Positions 312-33,279 of a stretch of 64,000 nt of DNA are shown here, piece by piece. Source of the stretch: Escherichia coli (GTDB lineage Bacteria; Pseudomonadota; Gammaproteobacteria; Enterobacterales; Enterobacteriaceae); assembly GCF_003018255.1 (NCBI RefSeq), contig NZ_CP027440.1; one strand, written 5' to 3'. The notes below the pieces were generated by a model that was given only the letters and a program-made list of their open reading frames with translations, did no database searches and had not been told where the DNA came from. Position 1 is the stretch's first letter. Each line of letters begins with the position of its first letter. The translations under genes were made by a program, and so were the position numbers.

Positions 312-462
312 ACTAAATCATCACATAACCATGACATTTTTCTGATATTCCCCGGTAACGCCAGATGTCGACTCGCTTATCTCATCCGCCCGACATGTTG
401 TACATGCAATATGTGCGGATTATTATTCATTTTCACGGAGGTTGCTATGTCAACCGGATTAC

Positions 463-1753: not shown

Positions 1754-2359
1754 AACACCGAGGTGCTGAATAACCGCACCACGGATGTGATAAACAACCA
1801 TGCTGAGACCATCGGCAACAATCAGGTGATTGCGGTTACCAACAATCAGATACAGACGGTGGGCGTTAACCAGATAGAGACGGTGGGCAGTAACCAGATC
1901 ATTAAAGTGGGCTCTGTTCAGGTGGAAACGATTGGACTTGTTCGTGCGCTGACCGTGGGCGTGGCGTATCAGACGACGGTAGGTGGCATTATGAACACCT
2001 CGGTGGCCCTGATGCAGTCCTCGCAGATCGGTTTGCATAAATCGTTGATGGTCGGGCTGGGTTATGACGTCAAAGTCGGAAATAACGTTACCTTCACCGT
2101 TGGTAAAACGAAAAAGGATGATACCGGACAGACCGCGATTTACTCCGCCGGTGAGCATCTGGAACTCTGCTGTGGTAAGGCAAGGCTGGTGCTGACTAAG
2201 GACGGACAAATTTTTCTCAACGGCACAAAAATTCATTTGCAGGGTAAGGAGCAGGTTAATGGTGACTCACTGTTGATTAACTGGAACTGTGCAGCCTCGA
2301 AATCCCCACCGAAGACCCCTGATGAAAAGCAGGATACGCCGGATATGAGAGAGTACTGA
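1754..2359 (+). pseudogene. vgrG: vgrG 3' remnant (T6SS spike C-terminal repeat region), 5' part removed at the IS right end
   Basis: Translation shows VgrG-type repeats (VGVNQIETVGSNQIIKVGSVQVETIG); the track ORF start at 1721 lies inside the IS, so there is no native start. Confidence 0.65.
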
Positions 2360-2425
2360 TCCCGTACCTGTTCGGTATTCAGTAACAAACAAGCATTAAA
2401 AATAAACAGAAGAAGGAATTGAATC

Positions 2426-5400: not shown

Positions 5401-6586
5401 ACAGCATGGCGAGCCACTGGTCGAGAGCCGCTACCTTTACGACCCGCTGGGCCGCCGGACGGGTAAACGGGTATGGCGGCGGGAGCGTGACCTGACGGGG
5501 TGGATGTCGCTGTCGCGTAAACCGGAGGTGACGTGGTACGGCTGGGACGGCGACCACCTGACGACGGTGCAGACCGACACCACGCGTATCCAGACGGTAT
5601 ATCAGCCGGGGAGCTTCGCGCCGCTCATCCGCATCGAAACAGACAACGGTGAGCGGGAGAAAGCGCAGCGCCGCAGCCTGGCGGAGAAGCTGCAGCAGGA
5701 AGGGAGCGAGGACGGGCACGGCGTGGTATTTCCGGCTGAACTGGTGCGGCTGCTGGACAGACTGGAGGAAGAAATCCGGGCAGACCGCGTGAGCAGTGAA
5801 AGCCGGGCGTGGCTTGCGCAGTGCGGGCTGACGGTGGAGCAACTGGAAAAACAGGTGGAGCCGGAATACACACCGGCGCGAAAAGTTCATCTTTACCACT
5901 GCGACCACCGGGGACTGCCGCTGGCGCTTATCAGCGAAGACGGCAATACGGTGTGGAGCGCGGAGTATGATGAATGGGGAAACCTGCTTAATGAGGAGAA
6001 CCCGCATCATGTGTATCAGTCATACCGTCTGCCGGGGCAGCAGCATGATGAGGAGTCGGGGCTGTACTACAACCGGAACCGGTACTACGATCCGTTGCAG
6101 GGGCGGTATATCATCCAGGACCCGATAGGGCTGGCGGGGGGAATAAACCCGTACAGTTATGTTATGAACAATCCTGTGCAATGGATTGATCCATTGGGAT
6201 TAGCTCATACTTCAGGAAAATGGAAGGACTGTGGTAAAGGTTGTCGAATCCGAATAGATGGCGATGCTGTTGGTGACGGAAGACATTTGCATTGGGAGTG
6301 TAAAAATGGGAGTGGTGTAATGGGGGAATTTGGAGGTATGTCCCATGGTGAGGATTACTCATCAGCACCAAATAGCATTAAGAAATGTGCAAAAAAATAT
6401 GGTTTCGAGCCAGAACCAAGTAAAGATCTGTCATGCAAAACCTCCGGGCTATCAACTACTGATGCGGCTCTTGCAACTGGTGCTACAATTGGCGCAGGGT
6501 ATGTTATATATAGAGTGATTCGATTTATACCTTCACTTGCACCACCTCTTTGGTGGTCAATACCTGCAAACGTTGTTACTCCATGA
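2426..6586 (+). CDS. rhsE: Rhs family polymorphic toxin, full length (1386 aa): N-terminal domain, YD-repeat shell, PxxxxDPxGL motifs, divergent C-terminal tip
   Basis: N-terminus [31 protein letters not shown] and many YD repeats; DPIGLAGG at ~6120-6140 and WIDPLGL at ~6184-6204; GC-rich core then AT-rich ~125-aa tip; SD GAAGAAGGA upstream. Symbol is by position only. Confidence 0.85.
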
Positions 6587-6957
6587 TTAAAACGGATAAT
6601 GGAGATTATATAATGAGCGATTTTGACATTGTGAGTTCAATTGACTGGCATGATGGGGTTTTGTTAGAAGTAAAAACGACATTCAAAGAATCTCATTTTA
6701 ACATGACGTTATTTATTGACATTTATAAAAATGAGAACATTAGGGAAAAAATGATAGTTGAATTTTCTGATGTAGATGATTTAGTGTTCGCTATGGATTC
6801 TGCTGAGTTAATCGATAATCACAAGTCAGGTAATATAAGTAATGGGTATGTAAAGAAATTAAAAAACAAAAGGATATATAAATTTTTTCTTTATTTTTCT
6901 GATGGCTTATTAAGCATGACATTTAAAAATTTACAATTAATAAAACCATTAGAGTAA
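6583..6957 (+). CDS. putative cognate Rhs immunity protein (RhsI-like, ~124 aa)
   Basis: ATG overlaps the rhs TGA stop (ATGA) around 6583-6586; AT-rich like the toxin tip; no hydrophobic segment. Start could instead be 6550 or 6613. Confidence 0.6.
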
Positions 6958-6995
6958 CCAAATAAAAGGACTGGAGGAATCAGGGGAAGATCATT

Positions 6996-7021
6996 AAAGT
7001 TGTGATTATCATCACAACTTT
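6996..7021. repeat. perfect 11-bp inverted repeat AAAGTTGTGAT-TATC-ATCACAACTTT
   Basis: Read directly; lies ~40 bp after the immunity stop; terminator-like or protein-binding palindrome. Confidence 0.5.
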
Positions 7022-7124
7022 AATCTTGGTTTCACCTTGTTGATTTGATTAAAATTTAATCGCCAAATAATTAAATATATTAGAAAAGGACGTCTGGTGA
7101 ACATTCAAAGTCTTCTTGAGCATA

Positions 7125-8415
7125 CAGGGAAAGATCATCAGAAGTACACTTTTTGTACTAAATAATTCGCATTTTATGTTTAAAAATTGAGATATTCCTC
7201 ATTACCTAAAGCTGTTTTTTATTGCTTATACATGATCAAATACTCCTTACATAATTAAGGAGAACAAAATGGAACTTAAAAAATTGATGGGACATATTTC
7301 TATTATCCCCGATTACAGACAAACCTGGAAAGTGGAACATAAATTGTCAGATATTCTACTGTTGATTATTAGTGCCGTTATTTCTGGTGCAGAAGGCTGG
7401 GAAGATATAGAGGATTTTGGGGAAACACATCTCGATTTTTTAAAGCAATATGGTGATTTTAAAAATGGTATTCCTGTTCACGATACCATTGCCAGAGTTG
7501 TATCCTGTATCAGTCCTGCAAAATTTCACGAGTGCTTTATTAACTGGATGCGTGACTGCCATTCTTCAGATGATAAAGACGTCATTGCAATTGATGGAAA
7601 AACGCTCCGGCATTCTTATGACAAGAGTCGTCGCAGGGGAGCGATTCATGTCATTAGTGCATTCTCAACAATGCACAGTCTGGTCATCGGACAGATCAGG
7701 ACGGATGAGAAATCTAATGAGATTACAGCTATCCCTGAACTTCTTAACATGCTGGACATTAAAGGAAAAATTATCACAACTGATGCGATGGGTTGCCAGA
7801 AAGATATTGCAGAGAAGATACAAAAACAGGGAGGTGATTATTTATTCTCTGTAAAAGGAAACCCGGGGCGGCTGAATAAAGCTTTTGAGGAAAAATTTCC
7901 ACTGAAAGAATTAAATAATCCAGAGCATGACAGTTACGCAATTAGTGAAAAGAGTCACGGCAGAGAAGAAATCCGTCTTCACATTGTTTGCGATGTCCCT
8001 GATGAACTTATTGATTTCACGTTTGAATGGAAAGGTCTGAAGAAATTATGCGTGGCAGTCTCCTTTCGGTCAATAATAGCAGAACAAAAGAAAGAGCCAG
8101 AAATGACGGTCAGATATTATATCAGTTCTGCTGATTTAACCGCAGAGATGTTCGCCACAGCAATCCGAAACCACTGGCACGTGGAGAATAAGCTGCACTG
8201 GCGTCTGGACGTGGTAATGAATGAAGACGACTGCAAAATAAGAAGAGGAAACGCCGCAGAATTATTTTCAGGGATACGGCACATCGCTATTAATATTTTA
8301 ACGAATGATAAGGTATTCAAGGCAGGGTTAAGACGTAAGATGCGAAAAGCAGCCATGGACAAAAACTATCTGGCGTCAGTCCTTGCGGGGAGCGGGCTTT
8401 CGTAATCTTTCCCTG
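7125..8415 (+). mobile_element. ISAs1-family (H-repeat type) insertion sequence, copy 2, 1291 bp, same orientation as copy 1
   Basis: Same terminal repeats (CAGGGAAAGATCA ... CGTAATCTTTCCCTG) and same length as copy 1; internal sequence near-identical with scattered substitutions. Confidence 0.8.
7269..8405 (+). CDS. ISAs1-family DDE transposase (H-repeat-associated protein), 378 aa, copy 2
   Basis: Same length and register as 607..1743 with several substitutions (e.g. [15 protein letters not shown] vs [15 protein letters not shown]). Confidence 0.85.
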
Positions 8416-13551: not shown

Positions 13552-15095
13552 TATTCGCCCTCCGCTTTGTCGCGCACTTCGGTGATGTTGATGGCATCGA
13601 TACGGCTACTGTTGAACAGGTTGAATTTGCTGTCCGAGCCGTGGCAACCGTCGCCAAAGGTAAAACCGCAGCCATTGCGTTCTGCGAAGGCATCGCCCGC
13701 CATTTCCCGATGACTGGTTGGAATGACAAAACGGTCTTCATAGTTGGCAATGGCGAGGTAGCGATACATCTCTTCGACCTGGGCGACGCTCAGGCCTACT
13801 TCGTCAATGGCGCGGGTATCGGTAACGCCTTCCACGGTTTGTGAACGCATATAGTGGCGCATCGCCATCATCCGTTTTAGCGCCCGCAGTACCGGACCGG
13901 TATCGCCAGCACTTAACATATTGGCGAGATATTGCACAGGAATACGCAGGCTTTCGATGGCGGGCAGCACGCCTTCGCTTTTCGGCAAGCCGCCCGCATC
14001 AGCGTAGGACTGAATCGGTGACAGCGGAGGAACGTACCAGACCATCGGCAGGGTGCGATATTCAGGGTGCAGCGGTAGCGCCAGTTTCCAGTCCATCGCC
14101 ATTTTGTAGACTGGCGAACGCTGGGCAGCTTCAATCACGTTTTGTGGAATACCTTGTTTCAGGGCTTCTTCGATCACTGAGGGATCGTGCGGATCGAGGA
14201 ACACTTCGCACTGGCGTTCATAGAGGTCAACTTCGCGCTCGGTGCTCGCCGCTTCCTCGATGCGGTCGGCGTCGTAAAGCAGCACGCCCAGATACCGGAT
14301 GCGACCCACGCAGGTTTCTGAGCACACGGTGGGTTGGCCTGACTCAATTCGTGGGTAACAGAAGATGCATTTTTCTGACTTGCCGCTTTTCCAGTTGAAG
14401 TAGATTTTTTTGTACGGACAACCGCTAATGCACAAACGCCAGCCACGGCATTTATCCTGATCGATCAGCACAATGCCGTCTTCTTCGCGTTTGTAGATAG
14501 CGCCGCTTGGGCAGGTCGCCACGCAGCTGGGATTGAGGCAGTGTTCGCACAAGCGCGGTAGGTACATCATGAAGGTGTTTTCAAACTGCCCGTACATCTC
14601 CTTTTGCATGGCCTCGAAGTTGCGGTCACGGGCGCGTTTTTCGAATTCGCCGCCCAACAATTCTTCCCAGTTTGGCCCCCAGATCACTTTGTCCATCCGT
14701 TTGCCGTCAATCAGTGAACGCGGGCGAGCAGTAGGGATATGTTTGCCTTCCGGTGCGCTATGCAAATGTTCGTAGTCGAAGGTGAAAGGTTCGTAGTAAT
14801 CATCAATCTGCGGCACCACCGGGTTGGCGAAGATTTTGGTTATTACGCCCATCTTGCTGCCCAGACGCGGGCGGATCTTGCCATTCACATCACGCACCCA
14901 GCCGCCTTGCCACTCTTCCTGATCTTCCCAGTTTTTCGGATAACCAATGCCCGGTTTGGTTTCGACGTTGTTAAACCATGCGTACTCCATGCCTTCGCGT
15001 CCGGTCCAGACGTTTTTACAGGTCACCGAACAGGTATGGCAGCCGATACATTTATCGAGGTTAAGCACCATGCCGACTTGCGAACGTATTTTCAT
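13551..15095 (-). CDS. narY: nitrate reductase Z beta subunit, Fe-S (514 aa)
   Basis: Several Cys clusters (CIGCHTC, CEHCLNPSCVATCP). Confidence 0.9.
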   Translation of the reverse strand: MKIRSQVGMVLNLDKCIGCHTCSVTCKNVWTGREGMEYAWFNNVETKPGIGYPKNWEDQEEWQGGWVRDVNGKIRPRLGSKMGVITKIFANPVVPQIDDYYEPFTFDYEHLHSAPEGKHIPTARPRSLIDGKRMDKVIWGPNWEELLGGEFEKRARDRNFEAMQKEMYGQFENTFMMYLPRLCEHCLNPSCVATCPSGAIYKREEDGIVLIDQDKCRGWRLCISGCPYKKIYFNWKSGKSEKCIFCYPRIESGQPTVCSETCVGRIRYLGVLLYDADRIEEAASTEREVDLYERQCEVFLDPHDPSVIEEALKQGIPQNVIEAAQRSPVYKMAMDWKLALPLHPEYRTLPMVWYVPPLSPIQSYADAGGLPKSEGVLPAIESLRIPVQYLANMLSAGDTGPVLRALKRMMAMRHYMRSQTVEGVTDTRAIDEVGLSVAQVEEMYRYLAIANYEDRFVIPTSHREMAGDAFAERNGCGFTFGDGCHGSDSKFNLFNSSRIDAINITEVRDKAEGE

Positions 15096-18000
15096 TTTTT
15101 CGCCTCCTGTACCTGATCGCGACCTTCATCATCCAGCCAGTTAACGTTCTTCATCTTGCGGATCATGATGAATTCGTCACGGTTCGAGCCGACGGTGCCG
15201 TAGTAATTAAAGCCCCAGGCCAGCTGCGCGTAACCGCCAATCATATGCGTTGGTTTCGGACAAACGCGGGTGACCGAGTTATGAATGCCGCCGCGCATGC
15301 CAGTTACTTCCGAACCAGGAATATTCATAATGCGTTCCTGGGCGTGATACATCATGGTCATACCCGGCGGTACACGTTGGCTGACCACCGCGCGGGCAGT
15401 CAGCGCGCCGTTGGCGTTAAACACTTCCACCCAGTCGTTATCGACAATGGTCAGTTCACGGGCATCGGTTTCGCTAATCCAGACAATCGGTCCACCGCGA
15501 GAGAGCGTCAGCATTAGCAGGTTTTCACTGTAGGTTGAGTGAATGCCCCATTTCTGATGCGGCGTCAGGAAGTTAAGTGCTTTTTCCGGGAAGCCGTTTG
15601 GCGGTATCTGGCGCATTTCACTGACGCTACGGGTGTCGATAGGCGGGCGATAAGCCACCAGGCTTTCACCAAAAGCACGCATCCACGGATGATCCTGATA
15701 GAGCTGCTGGCGTCCCGACAGCGTGCGCCACGGAATTAACTCATGAACGTTGGTGTACCCCGCGTTATAGGAAACGTGATCGCTTTCCAGACCGGACCAT
15801 GTGGGGCTGGAGATAATTTTACGTGGCTGCGCCTGAATATCGCGAAAGCGAATCTTCTCGTCCTCTTTGTGCAGCGCCAGATGGGTATGTTCGCGTCCGG
15901 TGATCTCGCCCAGCGCCTGCCACGCTTTGACTGCAACATGACCATTGGTTTCCGGTGCAAGAGCCAGAATCACTTCTGATGCGTCAATGGCGGTGTCAAT
16001 CAGCGGACGCCCCTGTGCCGGGCCTTCACGCTTGGTGTAGTTGAGTTTGCCGAGGAAATCGATTTCATCCTGGGTATTCCACGAAATCCCTTTACCGCCG
16101 TTGCCAAGTTTGTCCATCAATGGCCCGAGCGAGGTAAAGCGTTCATAGGTAGCAGGGTAGTCGCGTTCCACCGCTACAATATTCGGCGCGGTTTTACCCG
16201 GGATCAGATCGCATTCGCCTTTGCGCCAGTCGAGCACTTCACACGGCTGGGAGAGTTCTGCCGGAGAGTCATGCAGCAGTGGTTGTAATACCACGTCGGT
16301 TTCTTTGCCAAGATGGCCCACGCACACTTGCGAAAATGCTTTGGCAATACCTTTGTAGATTTCCCAGTCGCTGCGTGATTCCCAGGCCGGATCGACCGCC
16401 GCAGAAAGCGGATGAATAAATGGATGCATATCCGAGGTGTTCATATCGTCTTTTTCATACCAGGTGGCGGTGGGCAGAACGATATCGGAGAACAGGCAGG
16501 TACTGGACATACGGAAGTCGAGCGTCACCAGCAGGTCGAGCTTGCCTTCAATCGCCGCAGTTTGCCACTCGACTTCTTCTGGTTTGATCCCGTCGCTGGC
16601 ACCGAGTTCCTCACCCTGAATCCCACTTTCGGTTCCCAGCAGATACTTCTGCATATACTCGTGACCTTTGCCGGAGGAGCCAAGCAGGTTAGAACGCCAG
16701 ACAAACAAATTACGCGGATGATTGCTGCCCCTATCTGGTTGTTCGCAGGCCATGCGTAAATCGCCCGATTTCAGCGCCTGGGCGGTGAATTCTGTGGGGG
16801 ATAATCCGGCCTTGTCGGCTTCAGCTTTAATCCCGAGCGGGTTACACCCCAGCTGCGGCGCAGAAGGTAGCCAGCCCATACGTTCGGCACGAACGTTGAA
16901 ATCAATCAGATGACCGCTGTACTTACTGGCATCGGCGAGCGGTGAAAGTAACTCCTGAGCAGAGACTTTTTCATAGCGCCATTGACTGGAATGATTGTAG
17001 AAAAACGAGGTGCTGTTCATCTGGCGCGGTGGGCGGTTCCAGTCGAGCGCAAAGGCCAGCGGCAACCAGCCAGTTTGTGGGCGCAGTTTTTCCTGACCGA
17101 CATAGTGTGCCCATCCGCCACCGCTTTGCCCGACACAACCGCAGAAGATCAGCATATTGATCATTCCCCGGTAGTTCATGTCCATGTGGTACCAGTGGTT
17201 AACACCTGCGCCGAGGATAATCATCGAGCGCCCATGCGTTTTATGGGCAGTATCGGCAAATTCACGAGCGATGGTTTCAATATACTGGCGCGGCACACCG
17301 GTAATTTGCTCACCCCAGGCTGGGGTGTACGGTTTGATTTCAGCGTAATCTTTCGCGCTGTTTTCATCTTCCAGCCCGCGATCGAGGCCGTAATTCGCCA
17401 GTACCAAATCATAAACGCTGACCACCGGACAGGTGTTGCCATCGGCTAATGTCAGGTTTTTAACGGGCAATTGGCGCACCAGGACCGGATTGTGTTTTAC
17501 GCTGCGAAAATGCGGATTTTCAATGCCGCCAAAGTAGGGGAAGGCCACGCCTGCAACGGCATCATGTTGACCGAGCAGAGTTAACGACAATTCGGTTTCC
17601 GTACCGGCGGCAATGGATTCCAGATTCCATTTGCCTTTTTCTCCCCAGCGAAAACCAATCGAACCGTTCGGCACCACCAGTTCGCCTGCTGTATTAACTG
17701 CTACGGTTTTCCACTGCGGATTGTTGCTTTCGCCCAGTCCATCTACCAGGTCAGACGCGCGGATCATGCGCCCGGGTACGTAGCTGCCATCGTCGCGAGG
17801 TTCCAGCATTACCAGCATCGGCATGTCGCTGTAGCGGCGGCAGTAGTTGATAAAGTAGTCGCTGGGATTATCGAGATGAAACTCTTTTAAAATCACATGG
17901 CCCATTGCCATCGCCAGGGCGCTATCAGTGCCTTGTTTTGGTGCCAGCCACTGGTCGCACAATTTGGCCACTTCAGAGTAGTCAGGGGTAATTGCGATGG

Positions 18001-18832
18001 TTTTAGTGCCTTTGTAGCGTACTTCGGTAAAGAAATGGGCGTCCGGCGTACGTGTCTGCGGTACGTTAGACCCCCAGGCGATGATGTAACTGGAGTTATA
18101 CCAGTCGGCAGATTCTGGCACGTCGGTTTGCTCACCCCAGGTCATCGGCGAGGCGGGCGGCAGGTCGCAATACCAGTCGTAGAAGCTTAAACAGGTGCCA
18201 CCTAACAGCGACAGATAGCGTGTTCCGGCGGCGTAAGAAACCATCGACATCGCCGGAATCGGCGAGAACCCGGCAACGCGATCCGGGCCGTAAGTTTTGA
18301 TGGTCCAGACGTTAGCGGCGGCAATCAGCTGATTTAGCTCCTGCCAGTTGGAGCGGATAAAGCCACCGCGTCCACGCACTTGTTTATAGCTCAGGCACTT
18401 TTGCGGATCGTTCATAATCGATGCCCACGCCAGTACCGGATCGCTGTGTTGCTTGAGGGCTTCGCGCCACAGTTCAATCAGTCGTTTACGAATGAGCGGG
18501 TATTTCAGGCGGTTAGCGCTGTAGAGATACCAGGAGTAACTTGCGCCACGCGGGCAGCCGCGAGGTTCATGATTTGGCAGGTCAGGGCGAGTGCGCGGGT
18601 AGTCGGTCTGTTGGATTTCCCAGGTCACCAGACCATTTTTAACGTAGATTTTCCAGCTACAGGAGCCTGTACAGTTAACACCGTGGGTGGAACGCACGAT
18701 TTTGTCGAACTGCCAACGCTGGCGATAGCTGTCCTCCCAGTCGCGGTTGCTGTGCATCACCTGTCCGTGACCATCGGCAAAGGTTTCGCCCTTTTGTTTA
18801 AAGTAGCGAAAGCGATCCAAAAGTTTACTCAT
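15092..18832 (-). CDS. narZ: nitrate reductase Z alpha subunit, molybdopterin (1246 aa)
   Basis: Track ORF trimmed to the MSKLLDRFRYF start (ATG at 18830-18832); ATGA overlap with narY. Confidence 0.9.
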   Translation of the reverse strand: MSKLLDRFRYFKQKGETFADGHGQVMHSNRDWEDSYRQRWQFDKIVRSTHGVNCTGSCSWKIYVKNGLVTWEIQQTDYPRTRPDLPNHEPRGCPRGASYSWYLYSANRLKYPLIRKRLIELWREALKQHSDPVLAWASIMNDPQKCLSYKQVRGRGGFIRSNWQELNQLIAAANVWTIKTYGPDRVAGFSPIPAMSMVSYAAGTRYLSLLGGTCLSFYDWYCDLPPASPMTWGEQTDVPESADWYNSSYIIAWGSNVPQTRTPDAHFFTEVRYKGTKTIAITPDYSEVAKLCDQWLAPKQGTDSALAMAMGHVILKEFHLDNPSDYFINYCRRYSDMPMLVMLEPRDDGSYVPGRMIRASDLVDGLGESNNPQWKTVAVNTAGELVVPNGSIGFRWGEKGKWNLESIAAGTETELSLTLLGQHDAVAGVAFPYFGGIENPHFRSVKHNPVLVRQLPVKNLTLADGNTCPVVSVYDLVLANYGLDRGLEDENSAKDYAEIKPYTPAWGEQITGVPRQYIETIAREFADTAHKTHGRSMIILGAGVNHWYHMDMNYRGMINMLIFCGCVGQSGGGWAHYVGQEKLRPQTGWLPLAFALDWNRPPRQMNSTSFFYNHSSQWRYEKVSAQELLSPLADASKYSGHLIDFNVRAERMGWLPSAPQLGCNPLGIKAEADKAGLSPTEFTAQALKSGDLRMACEQPDRGSNHPRNLFVWRSNLLGSSGKGHEYMQKYLLGTESGIQGEELGASDGIKPEEVEWQTAAIEGKLDLLVTLDFRMSSTCLFSDIVLPTATWYEKDDMNTSDMHPFIHPLSAAVDPAWESRSDWEIYKGIAKAFSQVCVGHLGKETDVVLQPLLHDSPAELSQPCEVLDWRKGECDLIPGKTAPNIVAVERDYPATYERFTSLGPLMDKLGNGGKGISWNTQDEIDFLGKLNYTKREGPAQGRPLIDTAIDASEVILALAPETNGHVAVKAWQALGEITGREHTHLALHKEDEKIRFRDIQAQPRKIISSPTWSGLESDHVSYNAGYTNVHELIPWRTLSGRQQLYQDHPWMRAFGESLVAYRPPIDTRSVSEMRQIPPNGFPEKALNFLTPHQKWGIHSTYSENLLMLTLSRGGPIVWISETDARELTIVDNDWVEVFNANGALTARAVVSQRVPPGMTMMYHAQERIMNIPGSEVTGMRGGIHNSVTRVCPKPTHMIGGYAQLAWGFNYYGTVGSNRDEFIMIRKMKNVNWLDDEGRDQVQEAKK

Positions 18833-18861
18833 GACATAACTCCTGCTCCAGGAATGAATTG

Positions 18862-18923
18862 GGATCTGATGCCTTGTCGGATGCGACACGGTTGTAGCCT
18901 GATAAGACGTGTCAGGCATCGAT
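18862..18923. repeat. REP-like palindromic element between narU and narZ
   Basis: CGGATGCGACACGG ... GCCTGATAAGACGTGTCAGGCATC resembles REP units. Confidence 0.5.
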
Positions 18924-18926
18924 CTC

Positions 18927-20315
18927 TTATTTTTGGCTGAACTTCCGCCGACCATAAACCAGCCAGGTCAGTAGCACACAAACGATGTAGAAGATTAAAA
19001 ACACTTTCATCGCGCCCACCGGAGAGCCGGTCATATTGAGCGACATGCCAAACGCCTGCGGAATAAAAAAGCCGCCCACTGCGCCAATGGCTGAGATAAA
19101 GCCCAGAGCGGCTGCCGTTTCGGTGATGGCTTCTCTTTGAGCTTGCTCATCACTACCGCCTTTCATCTTCACCCGATAAATTGTTATCTGGCGAAAGATG
19201 ACGGCGATCATCTGGAAAGTAGAACCACTTCCCAGACCCGCGGTCAGAAACAGCCCCATAAATACGGCGTAAAATGCGATGAAATTACCGGAGCCTGTGC
19301 CCGGTAAGGTAAGGAACAGCAGGGCGCTGAAAATCGCCATAAAAATGAAGTTGATCAACGTCACCCGCACGCCGCCGAATTTATCGGAAATAGCACCACC
19401 AACCGATCGCGCGATGGCACCGATAAATGGGCCAAAGAACGCCAGGCGCAGAATATTCACATCCGGGAACTGGGTTTTTGCCAGCATGGCAAAACCCGCA
19501 GAAAAACCGATAAACGAACCGAAGGTGGCAAGGTAAAGCAGGCTCAGCAGCCAGAGATGCAGGCGTTGTAAGACAGGGAGCTGGTCGGCAATTGAGGCGC
19601 GTGAACTGGCGATATCATTCATCCCTGACCAGGCGGCGATCGTGGCAATCGCCAGTAATGGCACCCAAATCCATGCGGCATTCGCCAGCGACATCACCGA
19701 ACCGTCGGCCTGCGGTACGCCATTGACGCCGAGAAAGGCAAATACGGGGACAAAAATGACCAGCGGTGCAACCAGCTGCATCACACTTACACCTAAGTTT
19801 CCTAATCCGCCATTAATCCCAAGAGCGCTCCCTTGTTTGGCTTTTGGAAAGAAGAAACTGATATTGCCCATGCTCGAAGCAAAGTTCGCACCTGCAAAAC
19901 CGCATAGCAAAGCGATAACGATAAATATCCCAAAAGGAGTATTCGGATTCTGCACGGCAATTCCGAGCCAGACGCAAGGAATAATCAGGATTGCAGTACT
20001 AAAAACCGTCCATCGGCGTCCACCGAATATAGGCACCATAAAGGAGTAGGGGACACGCAATAATGCGCCAGAAACGGAGGGTAATGCGGTTAATAAAAAG
20101 AGTTGATCGGTAGTGAAATTAAAACCGATTTTATTGAGATTAACAGTAACTGCGCTAAATAGCATCCAGACACAGAAGGCAAGAAGTAGGCAACTGACTG
20201 ATATCCAGAGGTTTCTTCGTGCAATATGCTTTCCTTTATTTTCCCAGAAGGCCGGATTTTCTGGTTTCCAGTCGCGTAAAAGATAACGACTATTTTTCTC
20301 ATTTTGCAGTGCCAT
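18927..20315 (-). CDS. narU: nitrate/nitrite transporter NarU (462 aa, MFS)
   Basis: Start set at MALQNEKNSRYLL within the track ORF. Confidence 0.85.
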   Translation of the reverse strand: MALQNEKNSRYLLRDWKPENPAFWENKGKHIARRNLWISVSCLLLAFCVWMLFSAVTVNLNKIGFNFTTDQLFLLTALPSVSGALLRVPYSFMVPIFGGRRWTVFSTAILIIPCVWLGIAVQNPNTPFGIFIVIALLCGFAGANFASSMGNISFFFPKAKQGSALGINGGLGNLGVSVMQLVAPLVIFVPVFAFLGVNGVPQADGSVMSLANAAWIWVPLLAIATIAAWSGMNDIASSRASIADQLPVLQRLHLWLLSLLYLATFGSFIGFSAGFAMLAKTQFPDVNILRLAFFGPFIGAIARSVGGAISDKFGGVRVTLINFIFMAIFSALLFLTLPGTGSGNFIAFYAVFMGLFLTAGLGSGSTFQMIAVIFRQITIYRVKMKGGSDEQAQREAITETAAALGFISAIGAVGGFFIPQAFGMSLNMTGSPVGAMKVFLIFYIVCVLLTWLVYGRRKFSQK

Positions 20316-20587
20316 ATTGTTCCTCACATGCACACATTGGTAATGAAAAAAAGACAAAACAGGAGGTAAGGCGCAATAGCCAGTTATTAGAATTAAGGAT
20401 GAATCAGGTGAAGTGCTGATTAGAAGAATAGATAAGAAAGCGTAACTGCGGGGGCAGAATGTGGATTAAACAGACAGATATGTGTTACTAAATGTAACTA
20501 AAATGGCTTTCTGGTATTTGAAATTTATTTTTTAATATTGTCAGAATTTATCTGATTAACTGCCGGGCCGTAGACCCGACAATTATT

Positions 20588-21469
20588 TTAGCCACGACGT
20601 GTCGCCAGCCAGCAGAGCAGGGAACCGCCGCAGACCATTAGCGCGCCTTGCCAGAACGAGAACGACAGCGGGGCGCTGAGCAGCACGGCTGCAAGCGCTG
20701 AGGAAAGGACGGGCGTAAAATACGAACCTACCGCCATAATGGTGACGTTGCCATGTAATATACCGACGTTCCATGCAGCATAAGCAAATCCTAAGGTAAA
20801 TGCCGCAGAGATGAGTTTAATCATGACTGGCGTGCTAAATACCATTTCTGGTTGTGGCGTGAGAAAATAGTAAACCCACAGACTTGCTCCCGTTAGCAGG
20901 ACAAAAACGGTAATTCCGTTAAATCCGCGTGCGTATTTATTCGTTACTGTGCAGTAGGCTGCCCAGATAAACGCACCAATAAACGACAGGAAATAACTCA
21001 ATGGGCTGGTGGTGATATTATTGATGATTTCATCATAATGTAACCCATTGTCACCACCTAACACCCAGCAGACGCCGACCAGGGCTAATAATAATCCTGG
21101 TACAATCAGCCAGTTGGTTTTCTGACCATTAAACAGAATGGCAAAGAGAATTGTCAGGCTGGGCCATAGATAGTTCACCATCCCCACTTCAATCGCCTGA
21201 TGACGGGTCGCCGCATACCCTAAGGAAAGCGCCAGACAGATTTCATAGCTGACGAATAACAGACTCCCGGCGAGTAAATAGCCTTTCGGGATCTGCCGAA
21301 TACGCGGAAATCCAACCGTGAAGATTAACAGCAGCCCGCTTAATGAATAGATAGCAGCTGCGCCGCCGACCGGGCCGAGCCCCTCACTGACACCGCGAAT
21401 CAATCCTACCATCGTGCTCCACAGGACGATCGCTATTAGCCCTATGAGCGTTGCTTTTTGTCGTGTCAT
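20588..21469 (-). CDS. yddG: aromatic amino acid exporter YddG (293 aa, DMT family)
   Basis: 10-TM-type hydrophobic protein; K-12 synteny. Confidence 0.85.
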   Translation of the reverse strand: MTRQKATLIGLIAIVLWSTMVGLIRGVSEGLGPVGGAAAIYSLSGLLLIFTVGFPRIRQIPKGYLLAGSLLFVSYEICLALSLGYAATRHQAIEVGMVNYLWPSLTILFAILFNGQKTNWLIVPGLLLALVGVCWVLGGDNGLHYDEIINNITTSPLSYFLSFIGAFIWAAYCTVTNKYARGFNGITVFVLLTGASLWVYYFLTPQPEMVFSTPVMIKLISAAFTLGFAYAAWNVGILHGNVTIMAVGSYFTPVLSSALAAVLLSAPLSFSFWQGALMVCGGSLLCWLATRRG

Positions 21470-21559
21470 GCTCGCTGTTTTGTCTCTCTTGCCGTTAAAA
21501 ATTAAGCTGAATTTTATAGCATTTTTTTAACTGGCCTGTCAGGCAGTGGTGCGTTTTTC

Positions 21560-21636
21560 TACCGCTATTGAGGTAGGTCAATTTGCGCAGGCGGATTATT
21601 TTGTGGCAAACACGTGTTCTTTTTGATTTCGCGCAA
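21560..21636 (+). promoter_or_regulatory. fdnG control region: NarL 7-2-7 inverted heptamers (TACCGCT-AT-TGAGGTA) and FNR-like half-sites (TTGAT-TTCG-CGCAA)
   Basis: Motifs read directly at 21560-21575 and 21623-21636; spacing to the fdnG ATG fits a class II FNR promoter with an upstream NarL site. Confidence 0.55.
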
Positions 21637-21700
21637 AAAGATTCAGAATTTTACTGTTAGTTTCCTCGCGCAGTAATACCCCTGAAAAAAGAGGAAAGCA

Positions 21701-24700
21701 ATGGACGTCAGTCGCAGACAATTTTTTAAAATCTGCGCGGGCGGTATGGCTGGAACAACGGTAGCGGCATTGGGCTTTGCCCCGAAGCAAGCACTGGCTC
21801 AGGCGCGAAACTACAAATTATTACGCGCGAAAGAGATCCGTAACACCTGCACATACTGTTCCGTAGGTTGCGGGCTATTGATGTATAGCCTGGGTGATGG
21901 CGCGAAAAACGCCAGAGAAGCGATTTATCACATTGAAGGTGACCCGGATCATCCGGTAAGCCGTGGTGCGCTGTGCCCGAAAGGGGCCGGTTTGCTGGAT
22001 TACGTCAACAGCGAAAACCGTCTGCGCTACCCGGAATATCGTGCGCCAGGTTCTGACAAATGGCAGCGCATTAGCTGGGAAGAAGCATTCTCCCGTATTG
22101 CGAAGCTGATGAAAGCTGACCGTGACGCTAACTTTATTGAAAAGAACGAGCAGGGCGTAACGGTAAACCGTTGGCTTTCTACCGGTATGCTGTGTGCCTC
22201 CGGTGCCAGCAACGAAACCGGGATGCTGACTCAAAAATTTGCCCGCTCCCTCGGGATGCTGGCAGTAGACAACCAGGCGCGCGTCTGACACGGACCAACG
22301 GTAGCAAGTCTTGCTCCAACATTTGGTCGCGGTGCGATGACCAACCACTGGGTGGATATCAAAAACGCTAACGTCGTAATGGTGATGGGCGGTAACGCTG
22401 CTGAAGCGCATCCCGTCGGTTTCCGCTGGGCGATGGAAGCGAAAAACAACAACGATGCAACCTTGATCGTTGTCGATCCCCGTTTTACGCGTACCGCTTC
22501 TGTAGCGGATATTTACGCACCTATTCGTTCCGGTACGGACATTACGTTCCTGTCTGGCGTTTTGCGCTACCTGATCGAAAACAACAAAATCAATGCCGAA
22601 TACGTTAAGCATTACACCAATGCCAGCCTGCTGGTGCGTGATGATTTTGCTTTCGAAGACGGTCTGTTCAGCGGCTACGACGCTGAAAAACGGCAATACG
22701 ATAAATCGTCCTGGAACTATCAGTTCGATGAAAACGGCTATGCGAAACGCGATGAAACACTGACTCATCCGCGCTGTGTGTGGAACCTGCTGAAAGCGCA
22801 CGTTTCCCGCTACACGCCGGACGTTGTTGAAAACATCTGCGGTACGCCAAAAGCCGACTTCCTGAAAGTGTGTGAAGTGCTGGCCTCCACCAGCGCACCG
22901 GATCGCACAACCACCTTCCTGTACGCGCTGGGCTGGACGCAGCACACCGTGGGTGCGCAGAACATCCGTACTATGGCGATGATCCAGTTGCTGCTCGGTA
23001 ACATGGGTATGGCCGGTGGCGGCGTGAACGCATTGCGTGGTCACTCCAACATTCAGGGCCTGACCGACTTAGGTCTGCTCTCAACCAGCCTGCCGGGTTA
23101 TCTGACGCTGCCGTCAGAAAAACAGGTTGATTTGCAGTCGTATCTGGAAGCGAATACGCCGAAAGCGACGCTGGCTGATCAGGTGAACTACTGGAGCAAC
23201 TATCCGAAGTTCTTCGTTAGCCTGATGAAATCTTTCTACGGCGATGCCGCGCAAAAAGAGAACAACTGGGGCTACGACTGGCTGCCGAAGTGGGACCAGA
23301 CCTACGACGTCATCAAGTATTTCAACATGATGGACGAAGGCAAAGTCACCGGTTATTTCTGCCAGGGCTTTAACCCGGTTGCGTCCTTCCCGGACAAAAA
23401 CAAAGTGGTGAGCTGCCTGAGCAAGCTGAAGTACATGGTGGTTATCGATCCGCTGGTGACTGAAACCTCTACCTTCTGGCAGAACCACGGCGAGTCGAAC
23501 GATGTCGATCCGGCGTCCATTCAGACTGAAGTATTCCGTCTGCCTTCGACCTGCTTTGCTGAAGAAGATGGTTCTATTGCTAACTCCGGTCGCTGGTTGC
23601 AGTGGCACTGGAAAGGTCAGGACGCGCCGGGCGAAGCACGTAACGACGGCGAAATTCTGGCGGGTATCTACCATCATCTGCGCGAGCTGTACCAGGCCGA
23701 GGGTGGTAAAGGCGTAGAACCGCTGATGAAGATGAGCTGGAACTACAAGCAGCCGCACGAACCGCAATCTGACGAAGTGGCGAAAGAGAACAACGGCTAT
23801 GCGCTGGAAGATCTCTATGACGCTAATGGCGTGCTGATTGCGAAGAAAGGTCAGTTGCTGAGTAGCTTTGCGCATCTGCGTGATGATGGTACAACCGCAT
23901 CTTCTTGCTGGATCTACACCGGTAGCTGGACAGAGCAGGGCAACCAGATGGCTAACCGCGATAACTCCGACCCGTCCGGTCTGGGGAATACGCTGGGATG
24001 GGCCTGGGCGTGGCCGCTCAACCGTCGCGTGCTGTACAACCGTGCTTCGGCGGATATCAACGGTAAACCGTGGGATCCGAAACGGATGCTGATCCAGTGG
24101 AACGGCAGCAAGTGGACGGGTAACGATATTCCGGACTTCGGCAATGCCGCACCGGGTACGCCAACCGGGCCGTTTATCATGCAGCCGGAAGGGATGGGAC
24201 GCCTGTTTGCCATCAACAAAATGGCGGAAGGTCCGTTCCCGGAACACTACGAGCCAATCGAAACGCCGCTGGGCACTAACCCGCTGCATCCGAACGTGGT
24301 GTCTAACCCGGTTGTTCGTCTGTATGAACAAGACGCGCTGCGGATGGGTAAAAAAGAGCAGTTCCCGTATGTGGGTACGACCTATCGTCTGACCGAGCAC
24401 TTCCACACCTGGACCAAGCACGCATTGCTCAACGCAATTGCTCAGCCGGAACAGTTTGTGGAAATCAGCGAAACGCTGGCGGCGGCGAAAGGCATTGCCA
24501 ATGGCGATCGTGTCACTGTCTCCAGCAAGCGTGGCTTTATCCGCGCGGTGGCTGTGGTAACGCGCCGTCTGAAACCGCTGAATGTAAACGGTCAGCAGGT
24601 TGAAACGGTGGGTATTCCAATCCACTGGGGCTTTGAGGGTGTCGCGCGTAAAGGTTATATCGCTAACACTCTGACGCCGAATGTCGGTGATGCAAACTCG

Positions 24701-24748
24701 CAAACGCCGGAATATAAAGCGTTCTTAGTCAACATCGAGAAGGCGTAA
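21701..24748 (+). CDS. fdnG: formate dehydrogenase-N alpha subunit, selenoprotein (1015 aa), in-frame UGA at 22286-22288 decoded as Sec
   Basis: Track ORFs 21701..22288 and 22337..24748 are in one frame separated only by TGA; Tat signal MDVSRRQFFKICAGG. Confidence 0.95.
22289..22330 (+). promoter_or_regulatory. putative SECIS stem-loop directly 3' of the fdnG UGA
   Basis: Small palindrome GCAAG-TC-TTGC within ~25 nt of the UGA; exact structure not computed. Confidence 0.4.
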
Positions 24749-24760
24749 GGGGGCGAACAG

Positions 24761-25645
24761 ATGGCTATGGAAACGCAGGACATTATCAAAAGGTCCGCAA
24801 CTAACTCCATCACGCCGCCTTCTCAGGTGCGTGATTACAAAGCAGAAGTCGCAAAACTTATCGACGTTTCCACCTGTATCGGCTGTAAAGCCTGTCAGGT
24901 GGCGTGTTCGGAGTGGAACGACATCCGTGATGAAGTGGGGCACTGCGTCGGGGTTTACGATAACCCCGCCGATCTGAGCGCCAAGTCCTGGACGGTGATG
25001 CGCTTTAGCGAAACCGAACAGAACGGCAAGCTGGAGTGGCTGATCCGTAAAGACGGCTGTATGCACTGTGAAGATCCGGGCTGCCTGAAGGCGTGCCCGT
25101 CTGCTGGTGCAATCATTCAGTACGCTAACGGGATTGTCGATTTCCAGTCGGAAAACTGCATCGGCTGTGGTTACTGCATTGCCGGGTGTCCGTTTAATAT
25201 TCCGCGCCTCAACAAAGAGGATAACCGGGTATATAAATGCACGCTCTGCGTCGATCGCGTCAGCGTCGGCCAGGAACCGGCTTGTGTGAAAACCTGTCCG
25301 ACCGGGGCTATCCACTTCGGCACCAAGAAGGAGATGCTGGAGCTGGCGGAACAGCGCGTGGCGAAACTGAAAGCGCGTGGTTACGAACATGCTGGCGTCT
25401 ACAACCCGGAAGGGGTCGGTGGTACGCACGTTATGTACGTGCTGCATCACGCCGATCAGCCGGAGCTGTATCACGGTCTGCCGAAAGATCCGAAGATCGA
25501 CACCTCGGTAAGCCTGTGGAAAGGCGCGTTGAAACCGCTGGCAGCGGCTGGCTTTATTGCCACTTTTGCCGGGTTGATTTTCCACTACATCGGTATTGGC
25601 CCGAATAAGGAAGTGGACGATGACGAGGAGGATCATCATGAGTAA
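24761..25645 (+). CDS. fdnH: formate dehydrogenase-N beta subunit, 4Fe-4S (294 aa)
   Basis: Ferredoxin-type Cys motifs ([23 protein letters not shown]). Confidence 0.95.
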
Positions 25646-26291
25646 GTCGAAAATGATTGTGCGCACCAAATTTATTGATCGCGCCTGTCACTGGACCGTG
25701 GTGATTTGCTTCTTCCTGGTGGCGCTGTCCGGGATTTCGTTCTTCTTCCCGACGCTGCAATGGCTGACGCAAACCTTCGGTACGCCGCAGATGGGACGCA
25801 TTTTGCACCCGTTCTTCGGCATTGCGATTTTCGTCGCGCTGATGTTTATGTTTGTGCGTTTTGTACATCACAATATCCCGGATAAGAAGGATATTCCGTG
25901 GCTGTTGAACATTGTCGAAGTATTAAAAGGCAATGAGCACAAAGTGGCGGATGTTGGTAAGTACAACGCCGGGCAGAAGATGATGTTCTGGTCGATCATG
26001 AGCATGATTTTCGTGCTGCTGGTGACCGGGGTGATTATCTGGCGTCCGTACTTTGCGCAGTACTTCCCGATGCAGGTTGTTCGCTACAGCCTGCTGATTC
26101 ACGCGGCTGCGGGTATCATCCTGATCCACGCCATCCTGATCCATATGTATATGGCATTCTGGGTGAAAGGATCGATTAAAGGGATGATCGAAGGGAAGGT
26201 GAGCCGTCGCTGGGCGAAGAAACACCATCCGCGCTGGTATCGTGAAATCGAGAAGGCGGAAGCGAAAAAAGAGAGTGAAGAAGGGATATAA
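25638..26291 (+). CDS. fdnI: formate dehydrogenase-N gamma subunit, cytochrome b556 (217 aa)
   Basis: Start set at [12 protein letters not shown]; overlaps fdnH end. Confidence 0.9.
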
Positions 26292-26312
26292 TCTCTTTTG
26301 AACTTTAAGCTG

Positions 26313-26345
26313 AAAATGGCGCTTTAAGAAGCGCCATTTTTTTAT
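26313..26345. terminator. rho-independent terminator after fdnI (usable from both strands)
   Basis: AATGGCGC-TTTAAGAA-GCGCCATT hairpin followed by a T7 run. Confidence 0.75.
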
Positions 26346-26626
26346 TGCGTAACCAGACGGCGCAGTCGCGACACATCCACCGTTTTTTCAGCCTCTGCCA
26401 GGCTCCAGGCGTTTTGCAGATTCAGCCACATTTGCGGCGAACTGCCGATCACCACGGAAAGTTTAATCGCCATTTCCGGAGTGAGCGCCGCTTTTCCGGT
26501 CAGCAATCGGCTTGCCGTTGAGGGCGCAATTTCCATTGCTCTGGCAAACTCGCGCAGGCTGACATTAAGTTCGTCCAGTGATTCCTGAATAATGTCCCCC
26601 GGGCGGGGATGATTGGCCATTTTCAT
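26342..26626 (-). CDS. yddM: HigA-like HTH (XRE-family) antitoxin (94 aa)
   Basis: Short HTH protein directly downstream of the toxin gene with a 1-nt overlap. Confidence 0.75.
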
Positions 26627-26904
26627 CAGTGATAGTCCTCGTAATCCAGTATGTATGCATCGCCATTGACGAATTCAAATGTGATTCGCCAGTTGCCCGA
26701 GACAGATATCGCCCAAATTCCATCGCGATCGCCGCTTAACGGGTGTAGTCGGTAACCGGGCATATCGATATCAGCAAGACAGCTTGCTGCATCAATCACA
26801 GCGAGTCGGTGGCGTAATCGTTTGACTTGCGTCGGTATAACGCCGGAGGTTTTGCCGAGAAGAAACAAGTCACGCAATCCCTTGTGTCTGAAATTCATTA
26901 TCAT
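26626..26904 (-). CDS. HigB-like RelE/ParE-superfamily toxin (92 aa)
   Basis: Toxin-first gene order; size and sequence consistent with HigB-type killer proteins. Confidence 0.7.
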
Positions 26905-26916
26905 CTCTTCATCCTT

Positions 26917-26933
26917 GTTCCTTCAAAAGGAAC
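26917..26933. promoter_or_regulatory. palindrome GTTCCTT-CAA-AAGGAAC just upstream of the toxin start; candidate autoregulatory operator
   Basis: Perfect 7-bp inverted arms 13-31 nt upstream of the higB-like start codon. Confidence 0.4.
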
Positions 26934-27089
26934 ACTATCACTATTGTTCCGTGCAGCGCAACAAATTTCGCTACGTTTTTGCGAATTGTGAGGGGAAATA
27001 TGGGGGAGGAAAAGAAGAAGAGTGAAATTGCGGAAAGCGTCTCGCAAAACAGGCTGCGACCCGAACATGGCAGTCGCAGCAAAGGCCTC

Positions 27090-31318: not shown

Positions 31319-31373
31319 AGCGTTGCCGGATGACGCGTCAGGCGTGTGATTGCCTGATGCGTTGTTAGCGTCT

Positions 31374-32300
31374 CTACAGCGCCCGCCAGCACCGGATCTC
31401 ACGTTCGTCCTCCCTTATTGTTAATGATTGCCGGACTTCACATCCGTGGGTTGTCAGAGGGCAGCGTTCGCGGAAAAAACAGCCTTGTGGCAACGTGCGG
31501 TTTCCTGGTAGATCCGTTTTACGTAATGCCCATTCTTCCTCCAGCGGTTTATCAATGGCGGGGAGGGAATCCAGCAATAATCGGGTGTATGGATGTGCCG
31601 GAGCTGTCAGCACCTGTTGCGCGTCTCCTAGTTCCACAATCTGTCCGAGATACATCACCGCCACCCGATCGCTCATATGACGTATCACCGAGACATTGTG
31701 TGAAATCAGCACATAAGTCAGCTCGCGATTTTCCTGTAGCGTTACCAGTAAATTGAGGATCTGCGCCTGCACGGAGATATCCAGCGCCGAGGTTGGTTCA
31801 TCAAGCACAATCACGTCAGGCTGCGAAGAGAGTGCTCTGGCAATGGCGATACGTTGCCGCTGCCCGCCGGAAAACGCATGAGGCAAGCGGTCGAGATACT
31901 CCGGACGAATACCCACCTGCACAGCCAGCTCCTCTGCCAACGCTCGCCGCTGTTGTTCACTACTACGCTTAGCAATCCAGAGCGGTTCCGTGATGATGCG
32001 CCACACCGGTAAGCGCGGATTAAGCGAAGAGAGCGGGTCCTGAAACACCATCTGCATAATGCGTTGTGATCCTGAACGGATGTACTGCCCGTGGCTCGGT
32101 TGCAGCATACCCATTAAAAGCTGTGCGAGGGTGCTTTTGCCGCAGCCTGACTCACCGACGATCCCTAAGGTTTCACCACGACGGATCTGTAAATCAATAC
32201 CATTGATGGCATGAACATGTTCCGTAGTTTTACCAAGCCAGTTTTTACGGGCCGGGAAATTGATATGGACGTCGCGTAACGTTAATAATGTATCAGACAC
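31374..32300 (-). CDS. ddpF: D,D-dipeptide ABC transporter ATP-binding protein (308 aa)
   Basis: Walker A GESGCGKST; probable GTG start overlapping ddpD end. Confidence 0.8.
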   Translation of the reverse strand: MSDTLLTLRDVHINFPARKNWLGKTTEHVHAINGIDLQIRRGETLGIVGESGCGKSTLAQLLMGMLQPSHGQYIRSGSQRIMQMVFQDPLSSLNPRLPVWRIITEPLWIAKRSSEQQRRALAEELAVQVGIRPEYLDRLPHAFSGGQRQRIAIARALSSQPDVIVLDEPTSALDISVQAQILNLLVTLQENRELTYVLISHNVSVIRHMSDRVAVMYLGQIVELGDAQQVLTAPAHPYTRLLLDSLPAIDKPLEEEWALRKTDLPGNRTLPQGCFFRERCPLTTHGCEVRQSLTIREDEREIRCWRAL

Positions 32301-33279
32301 TAATGACCTCCTGCTGCGGATACCAACAGGCGCAGCGGTGGTTGTTGTCACCATACGCTGTTAGCACCGGGACGTTTTCACACTGTGCACCTGCCGCATA
32401 GCAACGATCGCGAAAAGCGCAGCCGTCAGGCAAATGGGTGAGGTTTGGTACCGTCCCCGGAATAGCGGGTAATGGCTGGCGCGGTATTCCATGTTCCGGT
32501 GCGCATTGCAGCAAACCAATGGTATACGGATGCCGGGGATGATGGATAACGTCTGCCGTCACGCCGCTCTCAATCACGCTTCCGGCATACATCACGTAAA
32601 CGCTATCGCACAGTTGCGACACCACGGCCATATCATGGCTGATGAACAGTACCGCAGTTCCACTGGCGCGGGCTTTATGTTTAAGCAGACGCAGTACCTG
32701 CAACTGTACCGTGACGTCCAGCGCCGTAGTCGGTTCGTCGGCAATAATCAATTGCGGCTCGCAGGAGAATGCCAGCGCAATCATTACCCGCTGGCGCATA
32801 CCACCTGAAAGCTCAAACGGATAGCGCGACATAACTTCCACGGCATCCGGGATTTGCATCTCTTCCAGCAGGGCAATCGCTTTAGCTCTGGCTTCCCGAC
32901 GACTTATTGGTTGATGATGGCGGATCACGTCCATCATCTGAAGACCTATTCGACGTGTCGGATTAAGGGCGGTCATCGGTTCCTGAAAGATCATCGCCAC
33001 TCGTGCGCCGCGCCACTGACGAAGCTGCTTTTCCCGAGCGTTAAGAACATCTTCTCCCAGCAGTGAAATATGTCCCCGATGTACGCAATAACTGCCCGTC
33101 GGTAGCAGACGCATAATCAACATTGCAGTGACTGATTTACCCGAGCCGGATTCTCCCACCAGACCGACAATTTCACCGCGGTTGATTTTCAATGACACAT
33201 TGTTGAGCGCGTGAACGTCGCCGTTAAAACCGGGGAAACTCAAATGCAGTTGTTGAATGTCCAGAACGGGTTGGGTCAT
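32293..33279 (-). CDS. ddpD: D,D-dipeptide ABC transporter ATP-binding protein (328 aa)
   Basis: Walker A GESGSGKS. Confidence 0.85.
   Translation of the reverse strand: MTQPVLDIQQLHLSFPGFNGDVHALNNVSLKINRGEIVGLVGESGSGKSVTAMLIMRLLPTGSYCVHRGHISLLGEDVLNAREKQLRQWRGARVAMIFQEPMTALNPTRRIGLQMMDVIRHHQPISRREARAKAIALLEEMQIPDAVEVMSRYPFELSGGMRQRVMIALAFSCEPQLIIADEPTTALDVTVQLQVLRLLKHKARASGTAVLFISHDMAVVSQLCDSVYVMYAGSVIESGVTADVIHHPRHPYTIGLLQCAPEHGIPRQPLPAIPGTVPNLTHLPDGCAFRDRCYAAGAQCENVPVLTAYGDNNHRCACWYPQQEVISV

Follow-up and report, generated by a model that had tools for sequence, protein, structure and literature searches.

The 272-bp spacer between narU and yddG is, with high probability, a deletion ("empty") allele of the variable locus O-island 62/yddJKL. 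It occupies positions 20316-20587 of the 64,000-nucleotide stretch of Escherichia coli DNA analysed here (the window), lies at the same place as the islet, between narU and yddG, and carries flanks homologous to those of the islet with no islet DNA between them, and its junction is common to other E. coli genomes.

Both flanking genes are on the minus strand, and the divergent fdnG adjoins. The first gene of narUZYWV, narU (18927-20315), codes for a nitrate/nitrite transporter (NCBIfam NF011608, 1020 bits) and is annotated as narU in the near-identical JNE23-011, while yddG (20588-21469) codes for an aromatic amino acid exporter of the DMT family (NCBIfam NF008676, 470 bits). The original prediction had put the gap at about 270 bp and described it as AT-rich, with neither an ORF nor an IS remnant, and this description holds: the GC content of the spacer is 35.7%, versus 49-50% in the flanking genes, no ORF of 30 or more amino acids lies wholly within it, and all but 6 bp align to the K-12 flanks, which leaves no room for an IS remnant. 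No tRNA was found in the spacer, nor elsewhere in the searched part of the window (15000-27000), and there is no Rfam match to the spacer at E ≤ 1, the sole chance match, to a miRNA, being inside the yddG-fdnG spacer. We also considered a small RNA in this AT-rich DNA, which was rejected given the missing Rfam match and the fact that the sole promoter-like site does not score above shuffled sequences.

The side of the spacer next to yddG (20508-20587, minus strand) is homologous to K-12 from 1546207 onward, and in islet-bearing strains this homologous DNA continues into a porin promoter. It includes a hairpin with a 13-bp stem (20557-20585, minus strand), which starts 3 nt past the yddG stop codon and has no U-tract (minimum free energy of −29.8 kcal/mol for a 101-nt segment, z = −5.9). 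The stem is kept despite base changes in K-12, O157 and E. albertii, and is probably the 3′-end or terminator stem of yddG; a simple terminator scan did not call it. On the other side of yddG, fdnG (21701-24748) reads as two ORFs (21701-22288 and 22337-24748) parted by an in-frame stop, and is annotated in RefSeq as a single protein of 1,015 amino acids. The stop presumably corresponds to the known selenocysteine codon of formate dehydrogenase-N.

To place the breakpoints, we compared the window with K-12 by BLAST. The left homology ends at 20501 (K-12 1544246) and the right homology begins at 20508 (K-12 1546207), so that every base of the spacer is accounted for by the K-12 flanks except the junction AATGGC (20502-20507), a 6-bp sequence in place of 1,960 bp of K-12 DNA and about 4.1 kb of O157 DNA. 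The left breakpoint is 186 bp upstream of the narU start codon and the right one 81 bp downstream of the yddG stop codon.

The original prediction had suggested a search for short direct repeats at the junction, and none bracket the islet: in the K-12, O157 and window loci we found neither direct nor inverted repeats around it, only scattered short AT-rich matches. Likewise, there is no target-site duplication at the islet boundaries of K-12 or O157, no terminal inverted repeats were found on the islet, and the islets of O157, ES5, 405 and K-12 contain no transposase or integrase gene, coding solely for porin and leucine-rich-repeat (LRR) proteins. No adjacent tRNA or tmRNA was found either, so that none of the features expected of a mobile-element insertion site is present. 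One 8-bp repeat, GATATGTG, might have served as a deletion substrate, with copies 17 bp into the left flank and 49 bp into the right end of the islet. We rejected it, because the product retains a dyad (see below) that this crossover would delete.

The occupied alleles differ among strains. The K-12 gene order given in the original prediction, with yddJ, yddK and yddL between narU and yddG, is indeed present in MG1655, and the two genes are thus not adjacent in K-12. The MG1655 spacer measures 2,227 bp and holds yddJ (a pseudogene), yddK (LRR) and yddL (a 96-residue N-terminal porin fragment). In O157:H7 the spacer is 4.4 kb long, and from narU to yddG contains espR1, which codes for a 419-residue LRR effector of the type III secretion system, LRR fragments and a gene for a 366-residue porin, all in the orientation narU < espR1 < LRR fragments < porin < yddG. 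Relative to the O157 form, the K-12 form lacks two internal segments, of 641 bp and 1,536 bp, and that of strain 405 lacks a different internal segment, of 1,616 bp. These distinct deletions indicate that the islet block decays independently in several lineages. This locus has been described as O-island 62 of the EHEC O157:H7 strain EDL933 (z2239-z2242), placed between yddG and narU, with yddL and yddJ as remnants of z2239 and z2242; the LRR-bearing islet was listed in O157, O55, UMN026, IAI39, SMS-3-5 and 042, and the AT-rich island was read as a recent acquisition (Okeke et al. 2011, PMC3079680). The GC content of the islet is 36% overall in O157 and 33.7% in K-12, and that of its porin gene is 44%, versus 49-52% in the orthologues.

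In a census of 5,426 complete E. coli genomes, the undivided, empty junction was present in 1,117-1,133 (about 21%), the decayed K-12 form (at least 80% of the K-12 islet) in 3,131 (about 58%), and a full-length porin, which in O157 accompanies espR1, in 1,112 (about 20%). E. coli thus shows at least four structural states between narU and yddG. The recurrence of the same junction in so many genomes indicates that the allele of the window is real, and not an assembly artefact. The empty junction is close to a single haplotype (1,108 of 1,117 genomes are at least 99% identical over 210 bp) and is found in the type strain ATCC 11775, in ST131 and in the B2 strain 536. The empty allele is an ordinary, lineage-typical polymorphism of a variable locus that has already been published.

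The narU-junction haplotype of the window is of the phylogroup B2 type. From narU through the spacer (18816-20587) the window is 99.6-100% identical to strain 536, and the spacer itself differs at a single base (20506), which makes the junction AATGAC in 536. The 3′ half of yddG (20588-21087) is 97.8% identical to 536, yet 99.6% identical to the islet-bearing strain 405, and this shift in identity places a recombination breakpoint near the yddG stop. We rejected the possibility that the window is a plain B2 genome, since it is B2-like in narU and the spacer alone, the surrounding 10-20 kb being about 97.8-98% identical. The closest genome, JNE23-011, matches the junction query at 100% and the first 26 kb at 99.06%, and is thus a different strain.

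Several differences between these genomes lie elsewhere in the window. JNE23-011 has an IS200C between fdnI and yddM (window position about 26338-26343), which is absent from the window and from 536. The window carries the D-Ala-D-Ala dipeptide operon ddpXABCDF (about 31363-37516), which 536 does not have, osmC being followed directly by dosP. A diguanylate cyclase gene upstream of dosP, which we take to be dosC of K-12, is annotated as a short remnant at about 40020-40184 of the window (offset from 40731-40895 in a related genome), and likewise in 536. Near the start of the window (about 460-8415), two copies of ISAs1, which share 96.3% identity, lie on either side of a VgrG fragment and an RHS core gene, and in a related genome a further ISAs1 runs off the window start.

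The genome of HH97 (NZ_CP116409.1; locus 2000-2273) has narU and yddG that are 99.9% identical to those of K-12, yet it carries the B2-type junction, with AATGAC. At most about 10-16 genomes resemble it. Such a mosaic needs either very short recombination tracts at the junction or replacement of the flanks on both sides, and it is not explained by a simple history of one deletion.

The direction of the change was determined from other Enterobacteriaceae, by a search for YddG relatives in a single genome of each species and a subsequent tblastn. In Citrobacter, Salmonella enterica subsp. arizonae and diarizonae, Enterobacter and Lelliottia, the gene that immediately follows yddG on the same strand codes for a porin. 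The remainder of the Citrobacter spacer contains smvA and smvR, and the order in C. koseri is yddG > porin > gfa > < smvA, smvR > narU > narZ. E. coli has been described as a species lacking smvAR (PMC6362122). In a neighbour-joining tree, the islet porin clusters with these syntenic porins, to which it is 70-75% identical, versus 59-62% to OmpC, OmpF, PhoE and OmpN of E. coli. Its nearest relatives in a database search follow the phylogeny: E. albertii (91%), C. koseri (77%) and Salmonella (72-73%), where the NCBI name of the matching proteins is porin OmpD; they may correspond to the characterised OmpD of S. Typhimurium. In the occupied alleles the gene thus has both the same-strand position next to yddG and the orthology expected of an ancestral OmpD-type porin; it is absent from the window.

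In E. albertii the porin gene is also directly downstream of yddG, split by an IS1, and about 130 bp separate the porin stop from the narU dyad and promoter. At the right breakpoint, the E. albertii sequence (ATACCAG followed by TAATTCACCT) is collinear with that of O157 and K-12 (ATATAAG followed by TATTTAACCT) and continues into the porin promoter, which is conserved across genera; the window diverges from all three exactly at this breakpoint (20508). Since E. albertii is collinear with islet-bearing E. coli across the breakpoint, the occupied state is ancestral and the window carries a derived deletion. By sequence and synteny, we regard the islet porin as an ancestral, vertically inherited gene of the OmpD type. 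No LRR genes were found in the E. albertii locus or in the other genera; they were seen solely in E. coli loci, and for this reason they look like a later gain. The original prediction left open whether the strain had never acquired the islet or had lost it cleanly; our results favour clean loss, and "never acquired" fails at least for the porin part, which is ancestral and occupies this position in E. albertii, Citrobacter, Salmonella, Enterobacter and Lelliottia.

The narU side of the spacer (20316-20501, minus strand; K-12 1544061-1544246) is shared by empty and islet-bearing alleles. We consider this region to be regulatory, since narUZYWV expression in K-12 is reported to increase through a point mutation upstream of narU (PMC11417348). 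In an alignment of 15 taxa from seven genera, the region could be followed in all seven up to a dyad, GTTACTAAATGTAAC (20484-20498), which resembles an operator and borders the conserved narU promoter on its distal side. Its consensus, kTTACAwTywGTAACA, is conserved in Escherichia, Citrobacter, Enterobacter, Kluyvera, Raoultella and Pseudenterobacter. Closer to narU, the block CTTTCTTATCTATTCTT on the narU strand (20424-20440, minus strand; also given as AAGAATAGATAAGAAAG) is nearly invariant in all 14-15 aligned taxa and, like the dyad, is kept across seven enterobacterial genera; it may possibly be a sigma-S-like −10 region. Homology between lineages ends 1-3 bp outside the dyad in every case. 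The simplest reading would be that the dyad is the distal edge of a promoter under selection, so that only rearrangements ending outside it survive, and we infer that selection for the narU promoter, rather than a site-specific mechanism, set the left breakpoint. By eye, none of ArcA, NarL, CRP, FNR and PhoP gave a convincing fit as regulator acting on the dyad. There is a small chance that the dyad is an operator for an uncharacterised narUZYWV regulator shared by at least seven enterobacterial genera, in which case the deletion, which sets the dyad about 55 bp from the yddG hairpin, could alter read-through into, or regulation of, this stationary-phase nitrate reductase operon in B2; the alternative of the dyad as a recurrent recombination breakpoint is included in that same small chance.

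Other rearrangements are found at or near this site. In Escherichia sp. MOD1-EC7003 the yddG stop is joined to the nhoA-yddE spacer, and narUZYWV is missing altogether (locus L007, 8883-9040). In E. coli ZH142 a deletion associated with IS1 extends from inside yddG to yncG, the IS1 truncating yddG (locus L088, 5288-6464). An E69-like strain has an IS1 in the narU-yddG spacer (locus L094, 3999-4274), and in E. albertii a truncated narU was observed beside an rhs gene (locus L102, 6137-9053). Taken as a whole, the site is variable mostly through loss, by repeated decay and deletion of a dispensable block. Of the proposed strain-variable insertion hotspot, the variability is thus borne out, by at least four states in E. 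coli, and the emphasis on insertion is misplaced, since no sign of a mobile element, repeat, integrase or tRNA was found and the changes are mostly decay or deletion, the LRR genes alone looking like a gain.

Two other histories of the islet have to be weighed. It is highly improbable that the empty form is the ancestral state of E. coli, and that the whole islet, porin and LRR genes alike, was inserted horizontally into non-B2 lineages and never reached this one. The low GC content of the islet in K-12 and O157 would fit such an insertion, as would the recent acquisition suggested for O-island 62 (PMC3079680) and the adjacency of narU and yddG in other Escherichia lineages. However, the orthologous porin has the same position and strand in E. 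albertii, C. koseri and other Citrobacter, Salmonella, Enterobacter and Lelliottia, the islet is without mobile-element features, and the collinearity of the porin promoter and of the yddG-porin spacer between E. albertii and islet-bearing E. coli largely refutes an ancestral empty state. As for the adjacency, it was observed in two divergent Escherichia lineages, represented by the records named E. coli E69 and SCPM-O-B-8794, in which narU is 88.6-89.8% identical to that of the window. Taken alone, it could suggest that the empty form is old in the genus, but in these records the spacer next to yddG is unrelated to that of E. coli, and YddG ends in TRHR or TRQR, versus TRRG in E. coli and Salmonella. 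These differences point instead to a separate, older deletion that clipped the end of the gene, and in its 80-bp yddG flank the window agrees with islet-bearing E. coli and not with the empty forms of E69 and SCPM-O-B-8794. A different possibility, which we consider improbable, is that the ancestor had just yddG, porin and narU, as E. albertii does, and lost only the porin, so that the LRR genes (espR1/yddK) were never acquired. This would agree with the distance of about 130 bp between porin and dyad in E. albertii, where no LRR genes intervene, with the confinement of these genes to E. coli loci, and with a junction that holds no LRR-derived bases. Against it, the LRR islet is found in IAI39 and SMS-3-5, among others (PMC3079680). 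In the empty allele, the 12 bp to the left of the dyad also resemble the islet allele at 7 of 11 positions, a weak likeness. IAI39 and SMS-3-5 belong to phylogroup F, the sister group of B2, which would date the LRR genes to before B2 diverged.

The common left boundary could also reflect a true recombination hotspot, site-specific or structure-driven, with recurrent insertions and deletions at the same nucleotide beside the narU dyad. Four rearrangements end 1-3 bp from the dyad (the E. coli LRR block, the B2-type deletion, the deletion of the E69/SCPM-O-B-8794 type and the E. albertii arrangement), and HH97 has the same junction in an unrelated flank background. We nevertheless hold a hotspot to be extremely improbable, because conservation across seven genera extends over the dyad and the next 170 bp downstream, as part of the narU promoter, and selection against promoter damage explains the shared boundary. 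In addition, each right-hand breakpoint is different, neither a recombinase gene nor a repeat is present, and the junction, essentially a single haplotype (identity of at least 99% in 1,108 of 1,117 genomes), fits one event better than recurrence. The deletion reading, which we prefer, has counter-points of its own: the AT-richness of the islet, the adjacency of narU and yddG in E69 and SCPM-O-B-8794, and the HH97 mosaic.

According to the deletion reading, the ancestral enterobacterial order would have been fdnGHI, divergent from yddG > OmpD-type porin > (gfa) < smvA, smvR > narU > narZYWV. The smvAR genes would then have been lost in Escherichia, after which E. coli would have carried genes of the LRR effector family (espR1 and relatives) between porin and narU, in an islet block that has decayed since by several independent routes. 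In the lineage of the window, a single illegitimate deletion would have begun about 81 bp past the yddG stop and reached the outer limit of the narU promoter. It would have taken away the porin gene with its promoter, and probably the LRR genes as well, while sparing the 3′ hairpin of yddG and all of the conserved narU promoter. The deletion most likely had a single origin, and its ancestor likely also had the LRR genes, whose presence the junction sequence itself cannot reveal.

The finding adds little new biology, since the site is a published variable locus whose empty form occurs in roughly a fifth of complete E. coli genomes, among them the type strain of the species. Its sole refinement to the literature is the vertical inheritance of the porin, which corrects the published view of the whole O-island 62 as a recent import: yddL of K-12 and the "OmpC-like" z2239 of O157 belong with the OmpD-type porin of Salmonella, as its remnants or orthologues. 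As a polymorphism with three states (intact, decayed, deleted), the locus provides a simple lineage marker, and the islet boundaries delimit the functional narU promoter.

Compared with the locus known as O-island 62, or yddL-yddK-yddJ, the window has the same chromosomal site and the same flanks up to the breakpoints, but no islet DNA at all, its 6 bp corresponding to 1,960 bp in K-12 and about 4.1 kb in O157. The O-island 62 paper does not describe the empty allele and takes the whole island as a recent import, unlike the result obtained here for the porin (PMC3079680). The B2-type genomes (536, ATCC 11775 and ST131) have the same 272-bp spacer, differing from the window at 0-1 nt. The other counterpart is the yddG-ompD-smvA-smvR-narU region of Salmonella and Citrobacter. 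In S. Typhimurium LT2 yddG and ompD are adjacent, our own check of this adjacency having covered S. enterica subsp. arizonae and diarizonae, and the Salmonella yddG-ompD region was reportedly the subject of work by Santiviago et al. in 2002, going by its title. In contrast to that region, the window has no porin, gfa, smvA or smvR, whereas the order and orientation of fdnG, yddG and narU, as well as the narU promoter elements, are shared between the two.
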